From the UHGV virus genome UHGV-0391423: a stretch of 5,140 bases of DNA; one strand, 5' to 3'. The notes beneath the pieces are model-generated. The model was given only the letters and a program-made list of their open reading frames with translations, made no database searches and had not been told where the DNA came from. Positions within the stretch are counted from its first letter, which is position 1. Each line of letters opens with the position of its first letter. Origin of the DNA: a virus. A program made the translations under genes and the position numbers. Below are positions 1 to 5,140 of the stretch, in pieces.

Positions 1-241
1 ACCGCTCAATCTGTGCTTGAGAACCAGCAGGGGTACTAGCTCCACTACTCGCATTATCCACCGCAAGTAAAGGATTTAAACCAGCATTTCTTAAGTCTTG
101 CATACGCCGACTTATAGAAGTATTGCTCATTTGCTCCTGCCATTCTCTATTCTTTTGTGCCTCATGCTTAGCACTGTTATTACCAAGTATTGTTGAAGCA
201 ATACCGCCAATAGCACCAGCGATACCGCCAAATAAACCCAT
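1..241 (-). CDS. VP2 minor capsid / DNA pilot protein, N-terminal 80 codons. It runs off the left edge and continues in frame at 5140..4617 if the molecule is circular. Hand translation from the ATG at 241..239: MGLFGGIAGAIGGIASTILGNNSAKHEAQKNREWQEQMSNTSISRRMQDLRNAGLNPLLAVDNASSGASTPAGSQAQIER
   Basis: Hand translation of the minus strand. The Gly/Ala-rich N-terminus is followed by MSNTxxxxRxxDLxxAGLNPxLA, which I recall as the signature of gokushovirus VP2 pilot proteins. An in-frame TAG sits at 253..251 and the upstream sequence ataGGTAGGTGATgtttATG pairs with the anti-SD. Alternative in-frame starts are the GTG at 250 and the ATG at 247. The ORF track missed this piece because the gene is split by the window edge. 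Confidence 0.75.
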   Translation of the reverse strand, partial: MGLFGGIAGAIGGIASTILGNNSAKHEAQKNREWQEQMSNTSISRRMQDLRNAGLNPLLAVDNASSGASTPAGSQAQIER

Positions 242-250
242 AAACATCAC

Positions 251-349
251 CTACCTATTAAAAAAACCTTCAAAACAACTTACCATAAAAACAAGTGAAA
301 ACATTAAAATAAAATACCATTTAATAATTTTTAATATTTTTTCCCACAT
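251..349 (-). CDS. Small hydrophobic peptide 2 (32 aa): MWEKILKIIKWYFILMFSLVFMVSCFEGFFNR. Predicted single-pass membrane peptide and candidate lysis/membrane protein.
   Basis: Hand translation. The SD AGGTGAT sits 4-6 nt upstream (taagAGGTGATgattATG). The stop TAG at 253..251 is directly followed by the VP2 start region. The hydrophobic core is WYFILMFSLVFMVSCF. It falls below the length cutoff of the ORF track. Confidence 0.45.
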   Translation of the reverse strand: MWEKILKIIKWYFILMFSLVFMVSCFEGFFNR

Positions 350-361
350 AATCATCACCTC

Positions 362-460
362 TTATGGTAATTGTAGCACAACTTCTGTTATTTTCCAAAG
401 GAAAAATAAACAACTCATTAATCCCAAGACCATAGCAAAATTTTTAAAGAATGGTTCCAT
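362..460 (-). CDS. Small hydrophobic peptide 1 (32 aa): MEPFFKNFAMVLGLMSCLFFLWKITEVVLQLP. Predicted single-pass membrane peptide and candidate lysis/membrane protein.
   Basis: Hand translation. A near-perfect SD AAGGAGGTG (plus 466-474) lies 5 nt upstream of the ATG at 460..458, and the stop TAA is at 364..362. The hydrophobic core is FAMVLGLMSCLFFLW. It shares a frame with peptide 2 and is separated from it by a single TAA. Confidence 0.5.
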   Translation of the reverse strand: MEPFFKNFAMVLGLMSCLFFLWKITEVVLQLP

Positions 461-465
461 ATAAA

Positions 466-474
466 CACCTCCTT
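466..474 (-). promoter_or_regulatory. Shine-Dalgarno AAGGAGGTG for small peptide 1
   Basis: Plus-strand cacctcctt is AAGGAGGTG on the minus strand, 5 nt before the ATG at 460. This is the strongest SD in the window and lies in the otherwise unannotated Rep-VP2 spacer. Confidence 0.55.
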
Positions 475-514
475 TAATTGAGCATTTTTTATCCAATTGC
501 CAATGTGCAAATTT

Positions 515-1456
515 TTATCTATTTACATTCTTAAAAGAATTGTAAATCTCTCTCTTAATTTTTCCCTGCTGAACATGATAATCATATATCTCTGTCCAGT
601 GTAAACCATACTTAATCATCAATTCCTTATTACACTCTAATATATAATCTTCCATTCTCCGTCTATACTCTAAGTACATTTCATTCAAATGAACATTATC
701 AGAATTTTCAGCATATTTCAAAAAGCTTTTAGGGATTCCAAGCTTTTGACCTCTAGAGTCATATATAAACCCATTAGTAAGAATTTGTTCATAATTTTCT
801 AAAAAATAATCTATTCCTAAAATTTTCTTAGGATAAACAACATAAGGTTTTCTTACAACTTTTCCATTGACTACAAAGTCATCTGATTTAATTTCTGAAA
901 ATTTAGTAATATACTTTACCATATAAGGAGCAGTATGTTCATTAACATCTCCAACATCAACAAACCCAGCTTTCCAAACAGATTCAAGAAATTTTGATTT
1001 ATAACAATTATAACCTTTCTTTGACTTATAAAAATATTTTAAGTCTGAAGGTTTATAGCCAAACATTATCATATGAAAATGAGGTCTACCATTTTTTTCT
1101 CCATACTCTCCAGATACTAAATATTTTATTTTACCTTCAAATCCATGATATTCTAACTTCCTTCTAAGTCTCTTCATAAATTTTTGAAAATAGGTATGAT
1201 TTAAAGAACCATTAGGGAATACCTCTTCCAAATTATCATCATCTACTGTAAGAGTTAAAAAACATATCTCATTATAACTATATTTTGTAAGTTCATATCT
1301 TACTCTTTGAGCAAGTGAAGTCCTCCATTTCTTTTTACACTCTGGACACTTACCACAAGGAACAATAACACTTCTAGTAATATCAGCATCTTTAGGATTG
1401 AACATATATTTATGCTCTGATCTATCCCAATAGATTTTTAAAGGAGACATACACAT
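515..1456 (-). CDS. Replication initiation protein (VP4 / phiX174 gpA-like HUH rolling-circle endonuclease), 313 aa
   Basis: The translation carries RCR motif I FLTLTVDD, motif II (HUH) RPHFHMIMFG and motif III with paired tyrosines APYMVKYITK, which resembles YVAKYVNK of phiX174 A. The N-terminal CGKCPECKKKW is the CxxC zinc-ribbon typical of microvirus Rep. The SD is AGGAGttgaagagtaATG. The start ATG at 1456..1454 shares an A with the TAA of the upstream ORF (TAATG). Confidence 0.9.
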   Translation of the reverse strand: MCMSPLKIYWDRSEHKYMFNPKDADITRSVIVPCGKCPECKKKWRTSLAQRVRYELTKYSYNEICFLTLTVDDDNLEEVFPNGSLNHTYFQKFMKRLRRKLEYHGFEGKIKYLVSGEYGEKNGRPHFHMIMFGYKPSDLKYFYKSKKGYNCYKSKFLESVWKAGFVDVGDVNEHTAPYMVKYITKFSEIKSDDFVVNGKVVRKPYVVYPKKILGIDYFLENYEQILTNGFIYDSRGQKLGIPKSFLKYAENSDNVHLNEMYLEYRRRMEDYILECNKELMIKYGLHWTEIYDYHVQQGKIKREIYNSFKNVNR

Positions 1457-1768: not shown

Positions 1769-1841
1769 TATTATAAAATTCGTTTGAAAAAATAACAATT
1801 TAGCGTAAAATTAACATTATATTTAGTTTAGTTAACTGATG

Positions 1842-2165: not shown

Positions 2166-2194
2166 AGTAAAAGAAAAAGCACCCTTTCGGGTGC
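2166..2194 (-). terminator. Rho-independent terminator downstream of the 166-aa gene. On the minus strand it reads GCACCC-GAAA-GGGTGC followed by TTTTTCTTTTACT.
   Basis: A 6-bp GC stem (2179-2184 / 2189-2194) with a GAAA tetraloop on the minus strand is followed by a T-run, the complement of plus aagaaaaa at 2171-2178. It lies 13 nt after the TAA at 2210..2208. Confidence 0.6.
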
Positions 2195-2207: not shown

Positions 2208-2708
2208 TTATGCTTTTGGTGTCTTATCATCAACAACTGGTTGTTCCACAGGCAACTCTGGAAGAGTAGTAACATCTTGAGGCTTTTCATAAATTTTTCC
2301 ATCCTCAATTTGATAATTATCTGGGTTACTACAATATTCAAAAAACTTTTGAGGAGTTCCAAACATTCCTCTTGTCTTTTCATCCAAATGTAAAAATTTT
2401 CTCTCAATCTTAGCTTTCTCATTTTGCCAATCTTCAAAAGTCCATGAACTAGTTTCATAATTATTCATATCATAAACTGGAGTTCTCGGAGTTCCTCTAT
2501 AATTTACTAACAACTGTTCTATTTCACACATTGACTTAAAACTTTGGTCGGTCAAACTCTCCATGTTATTTACTGTACCACTGATTTTAGGCCAACTTTC
2601 TTTATTCCAATAGGTTGCAAATCTAGGAATTTTAACTTCTTCTTCAACTGAATTTAAAGTACTTTTTTTAGAAACTTCCAAAACATCACTAACTTTTTTT
2701 AATTTCAT
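2208..2708 (-). CDS. Hypothetical acidic 166-aa protein immediately downstream of VP1. It may be an internal scaffolding protein (VP3-like), but this is unconfirmed.
   Basis: A strong SD AAGGAGGT lies 8 nt upstream of the ATG at 2708 and begins right after the VP1 TAG. The protein is D/E-rich. I recognise no motif, and the positional guess rests on the VP1-adjacent location. Confidence 0.6.
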   Translation of the reverse strand: MKLKKVSDVLEVSKKSTLNSVEEEVKIPRFATYWNKESWPKISGTVNNMESLTDQSFKSMCEIEQLLVNYRGTPRTPVYDMNNYETSSWTFEDWQNEKAKIERKFLHLDEKTRGMFGTPQKFFEYCSNPDNYQIEDGKIYEKPQDVTTLPELPVEQPVVDDKTPKA

Positions 2709-2725: not shown

Positions 2726-4348
2726 CTATATTCTACCAGCTAAAAGACTTGGATTTGATGAAACAGGTAGAGGTCTAGTTGCTTTAATATCAAACCAAAT
2801 ATCAGTAATAATATCTGGCTCATCAGGAGCACTTAACACTCTATCTATAGGAGTAGCACACTGGATAAACTCTCCATTTAATTTAGGTAAAGTTTCAAAT
2901 TTTTCTGCCAAATGCCACACATCAAGAGAACCTTCTACACCACTTCTCATCTTACCAGTAATTTTATTAATACCTTCTCTTAACTCTCTATATCTTTCTT
3001 GATAACCAAATACAGCTTCATTGGTTGCCTTATCTGGAGATAAGAAAATTTCCTTATTATAAACTGCTTGGTCTCCTAAGTTCCAGAAAGCAGGATTCAT
3101 ATAATCATACCTAGAAAGCTTATTAAACTTTCTCGCTACACCTTGTTGATATGTTACATCAGCACTAGCACAAGCTACAATCATAAATATACCATGTTCC
3201 ACTGCAGATATTTCGCATAATTCCTTATTACCTTGTCCAACTCCAATACCTGTAAGATTTCCTTGAGGAGAAACTTCATTTGTACTTGAATTTTGAACAA
3301 CAGGATTAACTATTATATCAACATTAGCACTTCCTAAATACTGACTTCTACCTAACAGAAAATCTGGACAAGTCACATTATAGTGCATTTTAACTAACTC
3401 TGGGTATCTCTCACCAGCTCTTGCATCTCTTTCAAGCAACACTTGTAATGCACTTGCTTTCCTTAATGCTTCAATAGATACTCCAGTTACTCTCGACATA
3501 TCAGCATATAGATGAGTATCAATATTACTTACACGACCAATGTCTCTAGCTCTCAAAACGTTATCTCCTCCACCGATGTAAGCAGTACTAACATTTTGAA
3601 CTAAAGAACCAGTATCAGAAAAAGTATTAATCCTAGTAACTTCAACACCAGTCATAACAGGAGCATTACCAGTCAAAGGTATCATCACTTCCTCTCCTGC
3701 TTGAGGATATGGTAAGCATGATGTAAAATAATCTAAAGGTTTTCCCTTCTTAAGTATCTTATATGTTGCTAAAGTATCTTTACTTTCTGCAGGGTCTCCA
3801 GATAAATTATCACCTGTATATTCCTTTAAAGGCTCTTGGAGTTCTGAAGCTCTAAACCAATCATTGAAAATTTTATTGTAAGCTCTAAAAGGTAAAACAG
3901 ATACCGAGTAGTCACAAGTTGTCCCAGTGGGCGGACATCCTAAATAGTCTCCGAGACCACCAACTGTATTCTCTGCTACTTTCATATTTAATTGAGGTAC
4001 TAAATAATCTACCTTATCATCTTGCCACTGCTTCTCACCCATAAAATTTAAAAAATGCTTCCATAAAAGTCTATTAGGTATCCAAAAAGCCATAAACTTT
4101 AATTTAACATTATCCATAACTGGGGAAATCATAGGCATAAGTCTACAAACACTTGCCACGGATACCTCGAAATGGTCTCCTGGGGATAACTCTTCCCAAT
4201 ATACAGGATAGATATTATCAAAATCAAAACAAGTTTTTAATCCTTCTGATAAATTAAAAGTTGACTTCATACCTTTTGCTTGGGGCAAGATATTACTGTC
4301 AAGAATAACCTCATTAGGCATTTTCATTGTAAAATTAGCATTATTCAT
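2726..4348 (-). CDS. Major capsid protein VP1 (Microviridae F-protein family, gokushovirus-like size), 540 aa
   Basis: The length and the N-terminal region (...FDFDNIYPVYWEELSPGDHFEVS...MPMISPVMDNVKLKFMAFWIPNRLLW...) match microvirus major capsid proteins as I recall them. The RBS is strong, GGAAGGAGAG followed by 8 nt and then ATG. The stop TAG is at 2728..2726. Confidence 0.85.
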   Translation of the reverse strand: MNNANFTMKMPNEVILDSNILPQAKGMKSTFNLSEGLKTCFDFDNIYPVYWEELSPGDHFEVSVASVCRLMPMISPVMDNVKLKFMAFWIPNRLLWKHFLNFMGEKQWQDDKVDYLVPQLNMKVAENTVGGLGDYLGCPPTGTTCDYSVSVLPFRAYNKIFNDWFRASELQEPLKEYTGDNLSGDPAESKDTLATYKILKKGKPLDYFTSCLPYPQAGEEVMIPLTGNAPVMTGVEVTRINTFSDTGSLVQNVSTAYIGGGDNVLRARDIGRVSNIDTHLYADMSRVTGVSIEALRKASALQVLLERDARAGERYPELVKMHYNVTCPDFLLGRSQYLGSANVDIIVNPVVQNSSTNEVSPQGNLTGIGVGQGNKELCEISAVEHGIFMIVACASADVTYQQGVARKFNKLSRYDYMNPAFWNLGDQAVYNKEIFLSPDKATNEAVFGYQERYRELREGINKITGKMRSGVEGSLDVWHLAEKFETLPKLNGEFIQCATPIDRVLSAPDEPDIITDIWFDIKATRPLPVSSNPSLLAGRI

Positions 4349-4452: not shown

Positions 4453-4620
4453 TCACTCTCCTTTTTCTGTTTCTTGTTTTTCAATCCCCTTAATAACTTT
4501 AATACTTCCCACAATAAATTGAGAAAACGACAAATTGAACTCTTCATCTTTTATAAATCCTCCCTTTTGTAATTTCTTTAATGTAAAATATCCTATTACC
4601 AAATCAATAACATCTTTCAT
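4453..4620 (-). CDS. Hypothetical 55-aa protein: MKDVIDLVIGYFTLKKLQKGGFIKDEEFNLSFSQFIVGSIKVIKGIEKQETEKGE
   Basis: Hand translation. The ATG at 4620..4618 overlaps the VP2 TGA stop (ATGA). The SD-like AGGAGA lies 11 nt upstream. The stop TGA at 4455..4453 sits inside the SD of the next ORF. The spacing is suboptimal and I recognise no motif. Confidence 0.35.
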   Translation of the reverse strand: MKDVIDLVIGYFTLKKLQKGGFIKDEEFNLSFSQFIVGSIKVIKGIEKQETEKGE

Positions 4621-5140
4621 TTGTTATAATTTCTCCTTTCTCTATTCTTCTTACTCTCACTCCAAAATCTCTTAGCAGAATTCCAACCATTATCTAAAAA
4701 ACGACCAACAGCTGCTCCAACTCTATTACCAAAATATTCAACATTTCCAGCAGCACCAGAACCTGGCATTCCTTTCCAAATATCACCACGTTTTTCTCTT
4801 TCTTTTAAATCCGGATTATTAGAATAAACACCAACTTCAAAATCTAATAACTGAATTTTTCTCTTAGCTTCCTCAGTAGACATTTTAATACCTTCAGCTT
4901 GTGCCTTATGCACCAAAATTCTAGCTTTACTCTCTAAAGTATTAGCTTTATTTAATTCCTGAACTGTCTTTTCAGTCAATATACCTTGCCTTTGCATTTC
5001 TGCCTCAAGTTTTAACTTCTCAGCCTTAACATCAAATATACTATTCTCATTTTGTATTGACTTTGTCTGTTCATCAATCTGTCTAGCCTGTGCATTTGCT
5101 ACCTTAGCAGAAGAAAGAGCGGTCAACCAACTAGGGTCAA
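4617..5140 (-). CDS. VP2 minor capsid / DNA pilot protein, C-terminal part. This is the 169-aa ORF of the track plus 14 nt to the window edge. It has a coiled-coil-like middle section and a Gly-rich C-terminus, and ends with a TGA stop at 4619..4617.
   Basis: The ORF track lists 4617..5126. Its leading M is really a TTG codon, which is internal once the frame is extended. Reading on through 5138..5127 and the junction codon formed by position 1 plus 5140 and 5139 (TTT, Phe) gives ...IER-F-DPSWL-TALSS... with no stop. The frame matches the 241..2 piece exactly. Confidence 0.75.
   Translation of the reverse strand, partial: DPSWLTALSSAKVANAQARQIDEQTKSIQNENSIFDVKAEKLKLEAEMQRQGILTEKTVQELNKANTLESKARILVHKAQAEGIKMSTEEAKRKIQLLDFEVGVYSNNPDLKEREKRGDIWKGMPGSGAAGNVEYFGNRVGAAVGRFLDNGWNSAKRFWSESKKNRERRNYNK

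Follow-up and report, generated by a model that had tools for sequence, protein, structure and literature searches.

The virus genome UHGV-0391423 was analysed as a window of 5140 nucleotides (nt), the whole of the available stretch. Between the genes for the replication initiator (Rep) and the DNA-pilot protein VP2 it contains a spacer of 267 nt, in which two very short hydrophobic open reading frames (ORFs) follow one another. The locus raises the question of whether these ORFs, named here peptide 1 and peptide 2, are genes at all, whether they form one gene or two, and what they could do for a virus of this kind. The module is a real, previously unannotated pair of membrane minigenes, composed of a conserved part (peptide 1) and a swappable part (peptide 2). 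Peptide 1 can be regarded as a real gene with high confidence, and the same is probable, with somewhat less assurance, for peptide 2. For their function, a role in host lysis is plausible and has a serious competitor in superinfection exclusion.

Two Minigenes in the Rep–VP2 Spacer

Translation of the minus strand from 499 to 239 reads KGGVYMEPFFKNFAMVLGLMSCLFFLWKITEVVLQLP, a stop codon, EVMIMWEKILKIIKWYFILMFSLVFMVSCFEGFFNR, a second stop codon and VMFM, an exact match to the text of the original prediction. By this translation, the two minigenes of 32 amino acids (aa), their sequences and coordinates and both of their ribosome-binding sites stand as first described (Table 1). None of the Shine–Dalgarno sites of Rep, VP1, VP2 and VP3 is stronger than those of the two minigenes. 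Furthermore, the VP2 site nearly repeats that of peptide 2 (AGGTGATGATTATG versus AGGTGATGTTTATG). As had been anticipated for peptides of this size, annotation has overlooked them: both are uncalled in identical contigs of the Logan collection and unannotated in the GenBank relatives.

Each peptide was proposed to contain one hydrophobic helix, and two types of prediction agree with this. The Kyte–Doolittle maxima over 19 residues are 1.89 for peptide 1 and 2.07 for peptide 2, both above the classic threshold of 1.6. AlphaFold2 returns one continuous helix for each of them, comprising residues 2–29 of peptide 1 and residues 2–31 of peptide 2, with predicted local distance difference test (pLDDT) values of 93 and 96, respectively, in single-sequence models that report helix propensity only. 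In peptide 2, a Lys-rich N-terminus precedes the single hydrophobic helix. Both can be taken as genuine, separately translated minigenes, each for a peptide with one predicted membrane helix.

The arrangement was compared with 5000 dinucleotide shuffles of the spacer. A hydrophobic ORF arises in 6.5% of the shuffles, a single hydrophobic ORF of at least 28 aa with an ATG start and a ribosome-binding site in 0.44%, and two such ORFs in none of the 5000. No Rfam match is found in the spacer. The spacer also holds a conserved non-coding motif, CACATTGGCAATTGG, whose core CATTGGCAATT is kept in 7 of 13 genomes (the window and the relatives L037, L002, L031, L041, L033 and L049), with variable flanking bases; the version of L041 reads TGGTAATT. 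The motif is absent where the Rep stop codon abuts the ribosome-binding site (L001, L029, L043 and L045), and it may act as an operator or in replication, or be a mere relic.

Relatives of the Locus

The comparison covered 19 related genomes, with Rep proteins 49–96% identical to that of the window. They were gathered by scanning viral and metagenome contigs, with Rep and an alignment of peptide 1 as queries, and also from contigs encoding Rep homologues and from two GenBank records. When small hydrophobic ORFs were sought in the Rep–VP2 spacer of these relatives, at least one with a ribosome-binding site was present after Rep in 18 of the 19, and a separate second peptide in 17. As a control, 28 distant microvirus loci, with Rep around 30% identical, were inspected, and only two of them have an intergenic hydrophobic minigene with a ribosome-binding site, which argues that base composition alone is not the source of these ORFs.

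Two relatives depart from the common arrangement. L049 lacks the second ORF, while L050, with a Rep 70% identical to that of the window, has neither peptide 1 nor a second-slot peptide; a single 71-aa ORF with two hydrophobic segments (1335–1550) lies there, holin-like in size and shape. The two GenBank records are pig-faeces microviruses (MG945371.1 and MG945222.1, Rep 69% identical) and carry an analogous pair of hydrophobic minigenes in the VP4–VP2 gap, at approximately 1050–1245 and 1077–1295. Their annotation consists of VP4, VP2 and VP1 as misc_features only.

Peptide 1: A Conserved Family

Peptide 1 adjoins Rep on its downstream side in 13 genomes, in which Rep is 61–96% identical to that of the window. 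It is represented by 12 distinct sequences, always with 32 codons, and neither an indel nor a stop codon is found within any of the 13 copies. The family follows the pattern ME.[WF].K......G......F[LI][YW]K..E..L[QN]LP, with the stop codon beside the next ribosome-binding site, and the consensus Me.wsKy..sllG...cl.FlyK..e..LqLP; the window sequence fits. Residues M1, K6, G13, F20, K23, L29, L31 and P32 are invariant, and E26 and Q30 nearly so. Such invariant residues would suggest a specific partner. The proline at position 3 is unique to the window, the sole invariant proline being the C-terminal P32, and no significant tendency of the conserved positions to lie on one helix face was detected (p=0.9).

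The substitution pattern resembles that of a protein-coding gene. In peptide 1 the pooled ratio of nonsynonymous to synonymous changes (pN/pS) is 0.41; the value for Rep, taken over the same pairs of genomes, is 0.34, and synonymous sites are close to saturation. Among 31 alignment columns, 21, 13 and 29 vary at the first, second and third codon positions, respectively. The invariant residues G13, F20, L29 and P32 are each spelled with two to four synonymous codons: G13 occurs with all four GGN codons, F20 with both TTC and TTT, and P32 with three of the CCN codons. The pN/pS, the variation at third positions and the synonymous spelling together indicate selection on the protein rather than on a DNA or RNA element. 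By these comparisons, peptide 1 appears as a conserved family under purifying selection.

Initiation signals are also conserved in most of the family. A GGAGGTG or AGGTGAT site is found 4–6 nt upstream of peptide 1 in 11 of the 13 genomes, and the start codon is ATG, GTG or TTG in 11 of the 13. The start position reads ATA in L033 (526–621) and L049 (3505–3603), where the ribosome-binding site is weakened and a GTG lies three codons upstream of the ATA, a situation that suggests non-canonical or reduced initiation of peptide 1 in these two genomes.

In five distant genomes (L047, L051, L053, MG945371 and MG945222), the same place is occupied by a 28-aa peptide of the form M[LV]DKYLQYL[VL]IAG.TFA.[IV]KI[VI][VL]LFAGP. 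It has no detectable similarity to the peptide 1 profile (p=0.55) and is best described as analogous to peptide 1, homology being not demonstrable at this level of similarity. Separately, peptide 1 was considered as a lipoprotein or outer-membrane spanin, and this was rejected: neither the cysteine nor the lipobox is conserved. In the window the lipobox region reads L-M-S-C17; L001 and L049 lack the cysteine, and L029, L033 and L052 have V or I at position −1.

Peptide 2: A Variable Slot

The place of peptide 2 (slot 2) shows a different type of conservation. A hydrophobic ORF of 25–44 aa preceded by a ribosome-binding site is found there in 17 of the 19 relatives, with two such ORFs in L001. 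These peptides form at least two types, and two archetypes recur among them. Type A, with a hydrophobic helix followed by a basic C-tail (..IWLIIKWIKRK), is found in L001, L002, L031, L045 and L052. Type B, with a charged, Lys-rich N-terminus (M..EF.KFL.K.IKG) followed by a hydrophobic helix, is found in L029, L033, L038, L041, L043, L047, L051, L053 and MG945222. According to the positive-inside rule, the two types should be oppositely oriented in the membrane.

The N-terminus of the window peptide 2 has a net charge of +2 and is followed by the helix. Against the slot-2 profiles its scores are not significant (p=0.25 for type A and p=0.10 for type B). Compared with composition-matched shuffles, it is similar to the slot-2 peptide of MG945371, MKDFLKFLKWLILGVFVLVFLTKLLGSI (p=0.0014), and to that of L038 (p=0.0001), and its DNA resembles slot 2 of L047 (p=0.0006). 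It is thus a probable, divergent member of type B, as judged by sequence similarity. The only relative among 1.84 billion cluster representatives is P0134, a 32-aa variant from another sample with a K7R change, and a degenerate DNA pattern of peptide 2 had no match in the viral contig collection.

These data bear on whether peptide 2 could be a recent or spurious ORF, arisen from T-rich DNA between two strong ribosome-binding sites and translated with no selected function. Its orphan status, with a one-residue variant as sole match, would fit such an origin, and so would the non-significant profile scores, the frequency of hydrophobic ORFs in the shuffles and a pN/pS of around 0.7–1.2 in the transmembrane part of type B peptides. 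However, a hydrophobic ORF with a ribosome-binding site occupies the slot in 18 of the 19 relatives, the single known variant carries a conservative change, the similarities to the MG945371 and L038 peptides are significant, and a hydrophobic ORF combined with a ribosome-binding site is rare among the shuffles. A spurious origin of peptide 2 is quite improbable.

Cassette Exchange

The comparison of the window with the closest prophage, L037, which resides in F. mortiferum, locates the variable segment with precision. The two genomes share around 95% identity in Rep and 91% in peptide 1, and no difference separates them from the peptide 1 stop codon over the ribosome-binding site to the ATG of peptide 2. 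Identity then falls to random level over exactly the body of peptide 2 and recovers at the VP2 ribosome-binding site. In L037 the slot is occupied by MEPGIREIFEVIVYFYLIYKIIVFVKNIFKR, a peptide unrelated to that of the window, which ends in a basic C-tail and whose DNA resembles type A (p=0.003). The replaced segment is bounded by the near-repeat motifs AGGTGATGATTATG and AGGTGATGTTTATG, the left edge being the peptide 2 site and the right edge the VP2 site.

A second pair of genomes shows the transfer of one slot-2 gene between different backgrounds. L002 and L045 have Rep genes that are 83% identical and slot-2 genes that are 100% identical, within an identical tract that extends from the middle of peptide 1 into the start of VP2. 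The exact bounding by ribosome-site repeats is therefore a property of the window/L037 pair, the L002/L045 tract starting within peptide 1 and ending within VP2. Taken together, these comparisons point to the Rep–VP2 region as a replacement hotspot for small membrane genes that are exchanged between lineages.

Two further observations concern small genes in neighbouring positions. L037 has an extra, hydrophilic and acidic minigene of 32 aa between Rep and peptide 1 (3999–4093, MVSIEELLKEQEEKERLWKAFAESGGYFDPDC), with a TTG start and flanked by ribosome-site-like repeats. In addition, the small acidic ORF upstream of Rep (1456–1713 on the minus strand of the window, in the position of VP5) is a second variable slot. 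The 85-aa ORF of the window and the 100-aa ORF of L037 (2696–2998) do not match at the DNA level, despite the 95% identity of the adjacent Rep, and the relatives hold several unrelated versions of this ORF, of 80–100 aa.

One Gene or Two

Besides two separate peptides, the original prediction had considered a recent nonsense split of a protein of around 70 aa with two helices, and stop-codon readthrough; recoding that joins the two ORFs into such a protein belongs to the same alternative. It had noted that peptides 1 and 2 share a frame, with a single TAA and four codons between them, which is correct; it had overlooked that VP2 lies in this same frame too. The common frame of the three ORFs would favour a single gene, as would the 71-aa ORF with two hydrophobic segments that L050 has at the same position. 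However, this L050 protein is not similar to peptide 1, each ORF of the window has its own ribosome-binding site, and peptide 1 terminates after LP at exactly 32 codons in 13 of the 13 genomes. Moreover, L001, L002 and L029 have their downstream ORFs in other frames, so that the common frame is not kept, and TAA, TAG and TGA all terminate core genes in the window genome. The constancy of the 32 codons, the unconserved frame and the use of all three stop codons lead to the rejection of both the readthrough and the recent nonsense split, which are extremely unlikely. Of the three options first offered, that of two separate peptides is the right one.

Genome Organization and Host

VP2 reads uninterrupted across the ends of the window, and the 5140 nt are therefore a complete circular genome, with 31.8% G+C; three other sequencing runs hold identical circles of 5140 nt. 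The long ORFs are all on the minus strand. Along the coding strand, the genes are the 85-aa ORF, Rep, peptide 1, peptide 2, VP2, a 55-aa ORF, an Arg-rich 35-aa ORF, VP1 and VP3, followed by around 490 nt of non-coding DNA. A Phage_F capsid protein, a Chlamydia-phage-type scaffold, a VP2 pilot and a Rep, the components that define the gokushovirus type, are all present, and there are no spike or external scaffold genes and no further large ORFs in the window. The genome is that of a gokushovirus-like microvirus.

VP2 has two in-frame ATG codons, at 247 and 241. The second is the likely start, favoured by the spacing from the ribosome-binding site and by the N-termini of homologues (MGFLSG, MGLFSG and MSLLGA). 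Automatic calls in the identical contigs begin at a GTG at 250, three codons upstream of ATG247 (254 aa). Promoter-like sites are no commoner genome-wide than in shuffled sequences, with 11 found and 12.2 expected.

Table 1. Positions of the minigenes, core genes and other features in the 5140-nt window.
Feature	Position	Strand	Remarks
Peptide 1 Shine–Dalgarno site, AAGGAGGTG	474..466	−	5 nt before the ATG at 460
Peptide 1 coding sequence	460..362	−	32 aa, MEPFFKNFAMVLGLMSCLFFLWKITEVVLQLP; stop TAA at 364..362
Peptide 2 Shine–Dalgarno site, GAGGTGAT	361..354	−	Adjoins the peptide 1 stop; the ATG at 349 follows after 4 nt
Peptide 2 coding sequence	349..251	−	32 aa, MWEKILKIIKWYFILMFSLVFMVSCFEGFFNR; stop TAG at 253..251
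VP2 Shine–Dalgarno site, TAGGTGAT	253..246	−	Overlaps the peptide 2 stop codon
Conserved non-coding motif, CACATTGGCAATTGG	493..507	−	Between the Rep stop and the peptide 1 ribosome-binding site
Rep (VP4), replication initiator	1456..515	−	PF23343, E=3.5e-22; phrog_942, E=8.6e-73; stop TAA at 517..515
VP2, DNA-pilot gene, 5′ part	1..241, continuing over the circular junction to 5140..4617	−	phrog_22637, E=3e-22
VP1, major capsid protein	4348..2726	−	Phage_F, PF02305, E=5.5e-134
VP3, Chlamydia-phage-type internal scaffold	2708..2208	−	PF09675, E=1.5e-10
Best promoter-like site	1798..1770		Upstream of the 85-aa ORF; consensus match only
Terminator-like hairpin	2194..2179		After VP3; consensus match only
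dif-like core, ATATAATGTTAATT	1809–1822	−	Within the non-coding DNA 1714–2207

Several relatives are prophages of Fusobacterium, with bacterial genes on one or both sides of the phage in L037, L043, L045, L047, L049 and L053. Proteins that flank the prophages are exact matches to those of Fusobacterium mortiferum (L037) and Fusobacterium sp. (L043), and the neighbours include an autotransporter outer-membrane protein. The identity of these flanking proteins places the host in Fusobacterium, a low-G+C genus with an outer membrane, rather than among the Gram-positive bacteria or in E. coli, as had been envisaged. A scan of species genomes for prophages with Rep gave one weak, irrelevant match only. 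Direct repeats of 64 nt on either side of a prophage of around 4.97 kb (L043, 4725–4788 and 9697–9760) also contain the dif-like core of the window, and a xerC/D-like recombinase gene adjoins the prophage in Fusobacterium contigs. The phage is temperate, and these features suggest XerCD/dif integration as in the E. coli gokushoviruses.

Possible Functions of the Minigene Pair

It has been reported that gokushoviruses have no identified lysis gene, except for occasionally acquired M15 peptidases (PMC7062461, PMC3394797, PMC9239249, PMC11499846), and that the phiX174-type lysis gene is absent from them (PMC7062461). The original prediction had noted this lack of a well-defined lysis gene, in agreement with the literature, and the window likewise has no recognisable one. 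No ORF of the window matches a peptidase, lysozyme, amidase, or other muralytic or holin family, no muralytic or holin family match was found in the ORFs of the relatives, and no extra enzyme ORF was found in 16 of them. The remaining ORFs of the window are soluble or have assigned core roles. Single-gene lysis genes are described as small, orphan and fast-evolving (PMC7693330), and the 37-aa single-helix peptide LysM is sufficient for lysis (PMC12506998). A lysis role is thus plausible, because no muralytic gene is found and because, in size and shape, the peptides are like single-gene lysis proteins. They are plausibly the best candidates, still unproven, for the lysis of a virus group in which no lysis gene is known, and the likelihood that the two-minigene module functions in lysis can be put at slightly less than even.

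The proposed mechanism would start with the independent translation of the two minigenes of the spacer into single-pass, alpha-helical membrane peptides of around 3.8 kDa each. Both lie within one long rightward operon, with the promoter-like site upstream of the 85-aa ORF and the terminator-like site after VP3, and each has its own extended ribosome-binding site, complementary to the 16S rRNA tail. Since each stop codon abuts or overlaps the next ribosome-binding site, peptide 1, peptide 2 and VP2 are probably translated in a coupled series. The peptides would accumulate in the inner membrane of the host late in infection, leading to the release of progeny. Peptide 1 could be the core effector. 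Like phiX174 E or levivirus LysM, it may be a protein antibiotic that interrupts the supply of cell-wall precursors at a membrane step, or else it may be a holin-like depolariser; peptide 2 could be a fast-evolving partner, a regulator or a second effector. In its most specific form, the proposal would make peptide 1 a 32-residue protein antibiotic, the lysis effector of this gokushovirus lineage, that blocks a membrane enzyme of cell-wall precursor supply in Fusobacterium, with slot-2 partners of opposite topologies that tune or antagonise it and move between phages as cassettes, possibly through recombination at the repeated ribosome-binding sites; this complete scheme is doubtful as a whole.

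Several points weigh against a lytic function. The link of the peptides to lysis would be one of analogy, with no association with a known lysis gene, and their transmembrane status is based on hydropathy and on a helix from single-sequence AlphaFold modelling. The hydrophobic core of peptide 1 comprises only around 15 residues, and its topology is ambiguous, both ends being near neutral. Neither peptide is strictly universal, as L049 and L050 illustrate, and slot-2 archetypes of opposite predicted topology would be hard to fit to one specific protein target. Moreover, hypervariable small membrane genes of prophages are also typical of superinfection exclusion. Finally, the E. coli gokushoviruses have six genes, with none of these peptides described, and yet they lyse their host (PMC7062461), so that lysis in the group may reside elsewhere. 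A different lysis candidate, a 29-aa hydrophobic ORF overprinted within Rep (1389..1300, minus strand), was rejected as probably spurious: it lacks a ribosome-binding site, and L001 does not retain its hydrophobic part.

Superinfection exclusion is a serious rival to lysis, if in itself unlikely. In this case, the minigenes would form a superinfection-exclusion, immunity or lysogen-fitness module, in which inner-membrane peptides expressed from the prophage or episome would block the DNA delivery of related phages, for example at the VP2 pilot tube, with slot 2 as the site of an arms race. The temperate character of the phage, with relatives integrated in Fusobacterium chromosomes beside a xerC/D-like gene, is consistent with such a module, as are the hypervariability and horizontal exchange of slot 2 and the inclusion of the 5′ end of the adjacent VP2 in the identical L002/L045 tract. 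It has also been shown that carriage of a gokushovirus confers superinfection immunity, by an unknown mechanism (PMC7062461). However, peptide 1 is conserved and not diversifying, and slot 2 does not track the type of VP2, since the VP2 5′ ends of the window and L037 are around 88% identical while their slot-2 peptides are unrelated. Furthermore, the location of both minigenes within the structural and replication operon, with very strong ribosome-binding sites, would imply high expression during lytic growth.

A membrane helper that does not kill the cell would instead tether Rep or the replicative DNA, or assist assembly and pilot handling as a chaperone for the insertion of the glycine-rich N-terminal helix of VP2. 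The position between Rep and VP2 and the apparent translational coupling to VP2 agree with this role, and VP2 proteins are known to bear an N-terminal transmembrane-like segment (PMC3394797). The invariant polar residues K6 and K23 (with E26 nearly so) and the C-terminal L.LP motif (with Q30 nearly so) would likewise suggest a specific partner. Nevertheless, 26 of the 28 distant microvirus loci have no intergenic hydrophobic minigene with a ribosome-binding site, and none are annotated in the six-gene E. coli gokushoviruses; the minigenes are therefore not a core requirement. In addition, the slot-2 peptides are interchangeable and non-homologous. A helper function is rather unlikely, somewhat more so than the exclusion module, and lysis by the minigene pair remains the reading preferred here.

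Significance of the Minigene Pair

No other microviruses are as abundant in gut and environmental viromes as the gokushoviruses. The minigene pair makes the question of their lysis testable, since it provides two candidates of a size suitable for peptide synthesis. The relatives constitute a natural comparative series, with a conserved peptide 1, two slot-2 archetypes, a relative with peptide 1 only and a relative with the 71-aa protein. If peptide 1 were lytic, it would reveal a druggable weak spot in the envelope of Fusobacterium, a medically relevant genus. Moreover, the cassette exchange shows the turnover of small genes within a single-stranded DNA genome of 5 kb, and the absence of both peptides from the gene calls of identical assemblies and from the GenBank annotation of relatives exposes an annotation gap.

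Comparison with Known Systems

Database searches did not assign the peptides to a known family. Peptide 1 has no Pfam-A match at E<=10, and the sole Pfam-A match of peptide 2 is DUF7248 (12.8 bits, E=0.12), far under the 27-bit cutoff. Neither peptide matches a PHROG at E<=1, and nothing is above threshold in PHROGs, Pfam or NCBIfam; the best family score was that of a type B peptide with the PspC transmembrane region (19.9 bits, cutoff 27), judged to reflect hydrophobic bias. A query with the fused peptides found no homologue in the database search, nor did peptide 1 match anything when the phage collection was searched in translation. With a tandem-duplicated alignment of peptide 1, no match was obtained in 5.8 billion sequences, an uninformative result, as a 32-aa match cannot reach significance and the L043 peptide 1 is present in this collection although the alignment search missed it. 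No description of either peptide was found in the literature.

A holin–endolysin cassette is excluded by the neighbours, Rep and VP2, and by the lack of an endolysin anywhere in the genome. The peptides do share with holins, pinholins and antiholins their small size, membrane character, tandem arrangement, translational coupling and topology variants, and the L050 71-aa ORF with its two hydrophobic segments recalls class II holins in size and shape. In contrast with tailed-phage holins, no endolysin or spanin was found in the window genome and there is no holin family match. Canonical holins are mostly longer than 32 aa. As for type I toxins of the Hok, Fst or TisB kind, the ribosome-binding sites are strong and exposed in the sequence, Rfam gives no match, and a sequence scan detected no promoter-like site on the opposite strand within 251–460, although antisense transcription may still occur there as far as sequence alone can tell.

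Superinfection-exclusion or moron genes resemble the pair in belonging to a temperate element and in being hypervariable, horizontally exchanged and membrane-associated. Unlike moron genes, the peptides lie inside the main operon, with no promoter or terminator of their own, and peptide 1 is conserved. The genome type and the dif-like integration beside host sequences are those of the XerCD/dif enterobacterial gokushoviruses (Kirchberger and Ochman 2020, PMC7062461), and the gene set is held in common, with VP4, an ORF in the VP5 position, VP2, a VP8-like gene, VP1 and VP3. The differences are the Fusobacterium host and the membrane minigenes of the spacer, which have not been described for the six-gene phages.

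The protein E of phiX174 (Bullavirinae, Pfam family Microvir_lysis) is an inhibitor of MraY whose activity resides in the transmembrane helix. It has 91 aa, is overprinted in the scaffold gene D, contains an essential intramembrane proline and requires SlyD. The likeness lies in a small microvirus with no muralytic enzyme and a short membrane protein, and in that one small gene might suffice for lysis. In contrast with E, the peptides have 32 aa, are free-standing, have their own ribosome-binding sites and form a tandem pair; the peptide 1 family has no conserved intramembrane proline, and peptide 2 has no proline. With no profile match, no overprinting and no such conserved proline, membership of the E family was rejected.

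The lysis proteins of single-stranded RNA phages, such as LysM (37 aa), which blocks MurJ, and MS2 L, are similar in being tiny, single-helix, orphan, of high turnover and missed by annotation (PMC7693330, PMC12506998). They differ in that they belong to RNA phages, mostly lie within other genes and number one per genome, whereas the pair described here combines a conserved and a variable peptide in dedicated intergenic slots of a Fusobacterium DNA phage. With respect to the single-gene lysis class in general, the window has small proteins with a predicted transmembrane helix and the phage has no muralytic enzyme. By analogy, the two peptides would be most like single-gene lysis proteins of the kind of phiX174 E and levivirus LysM or L.

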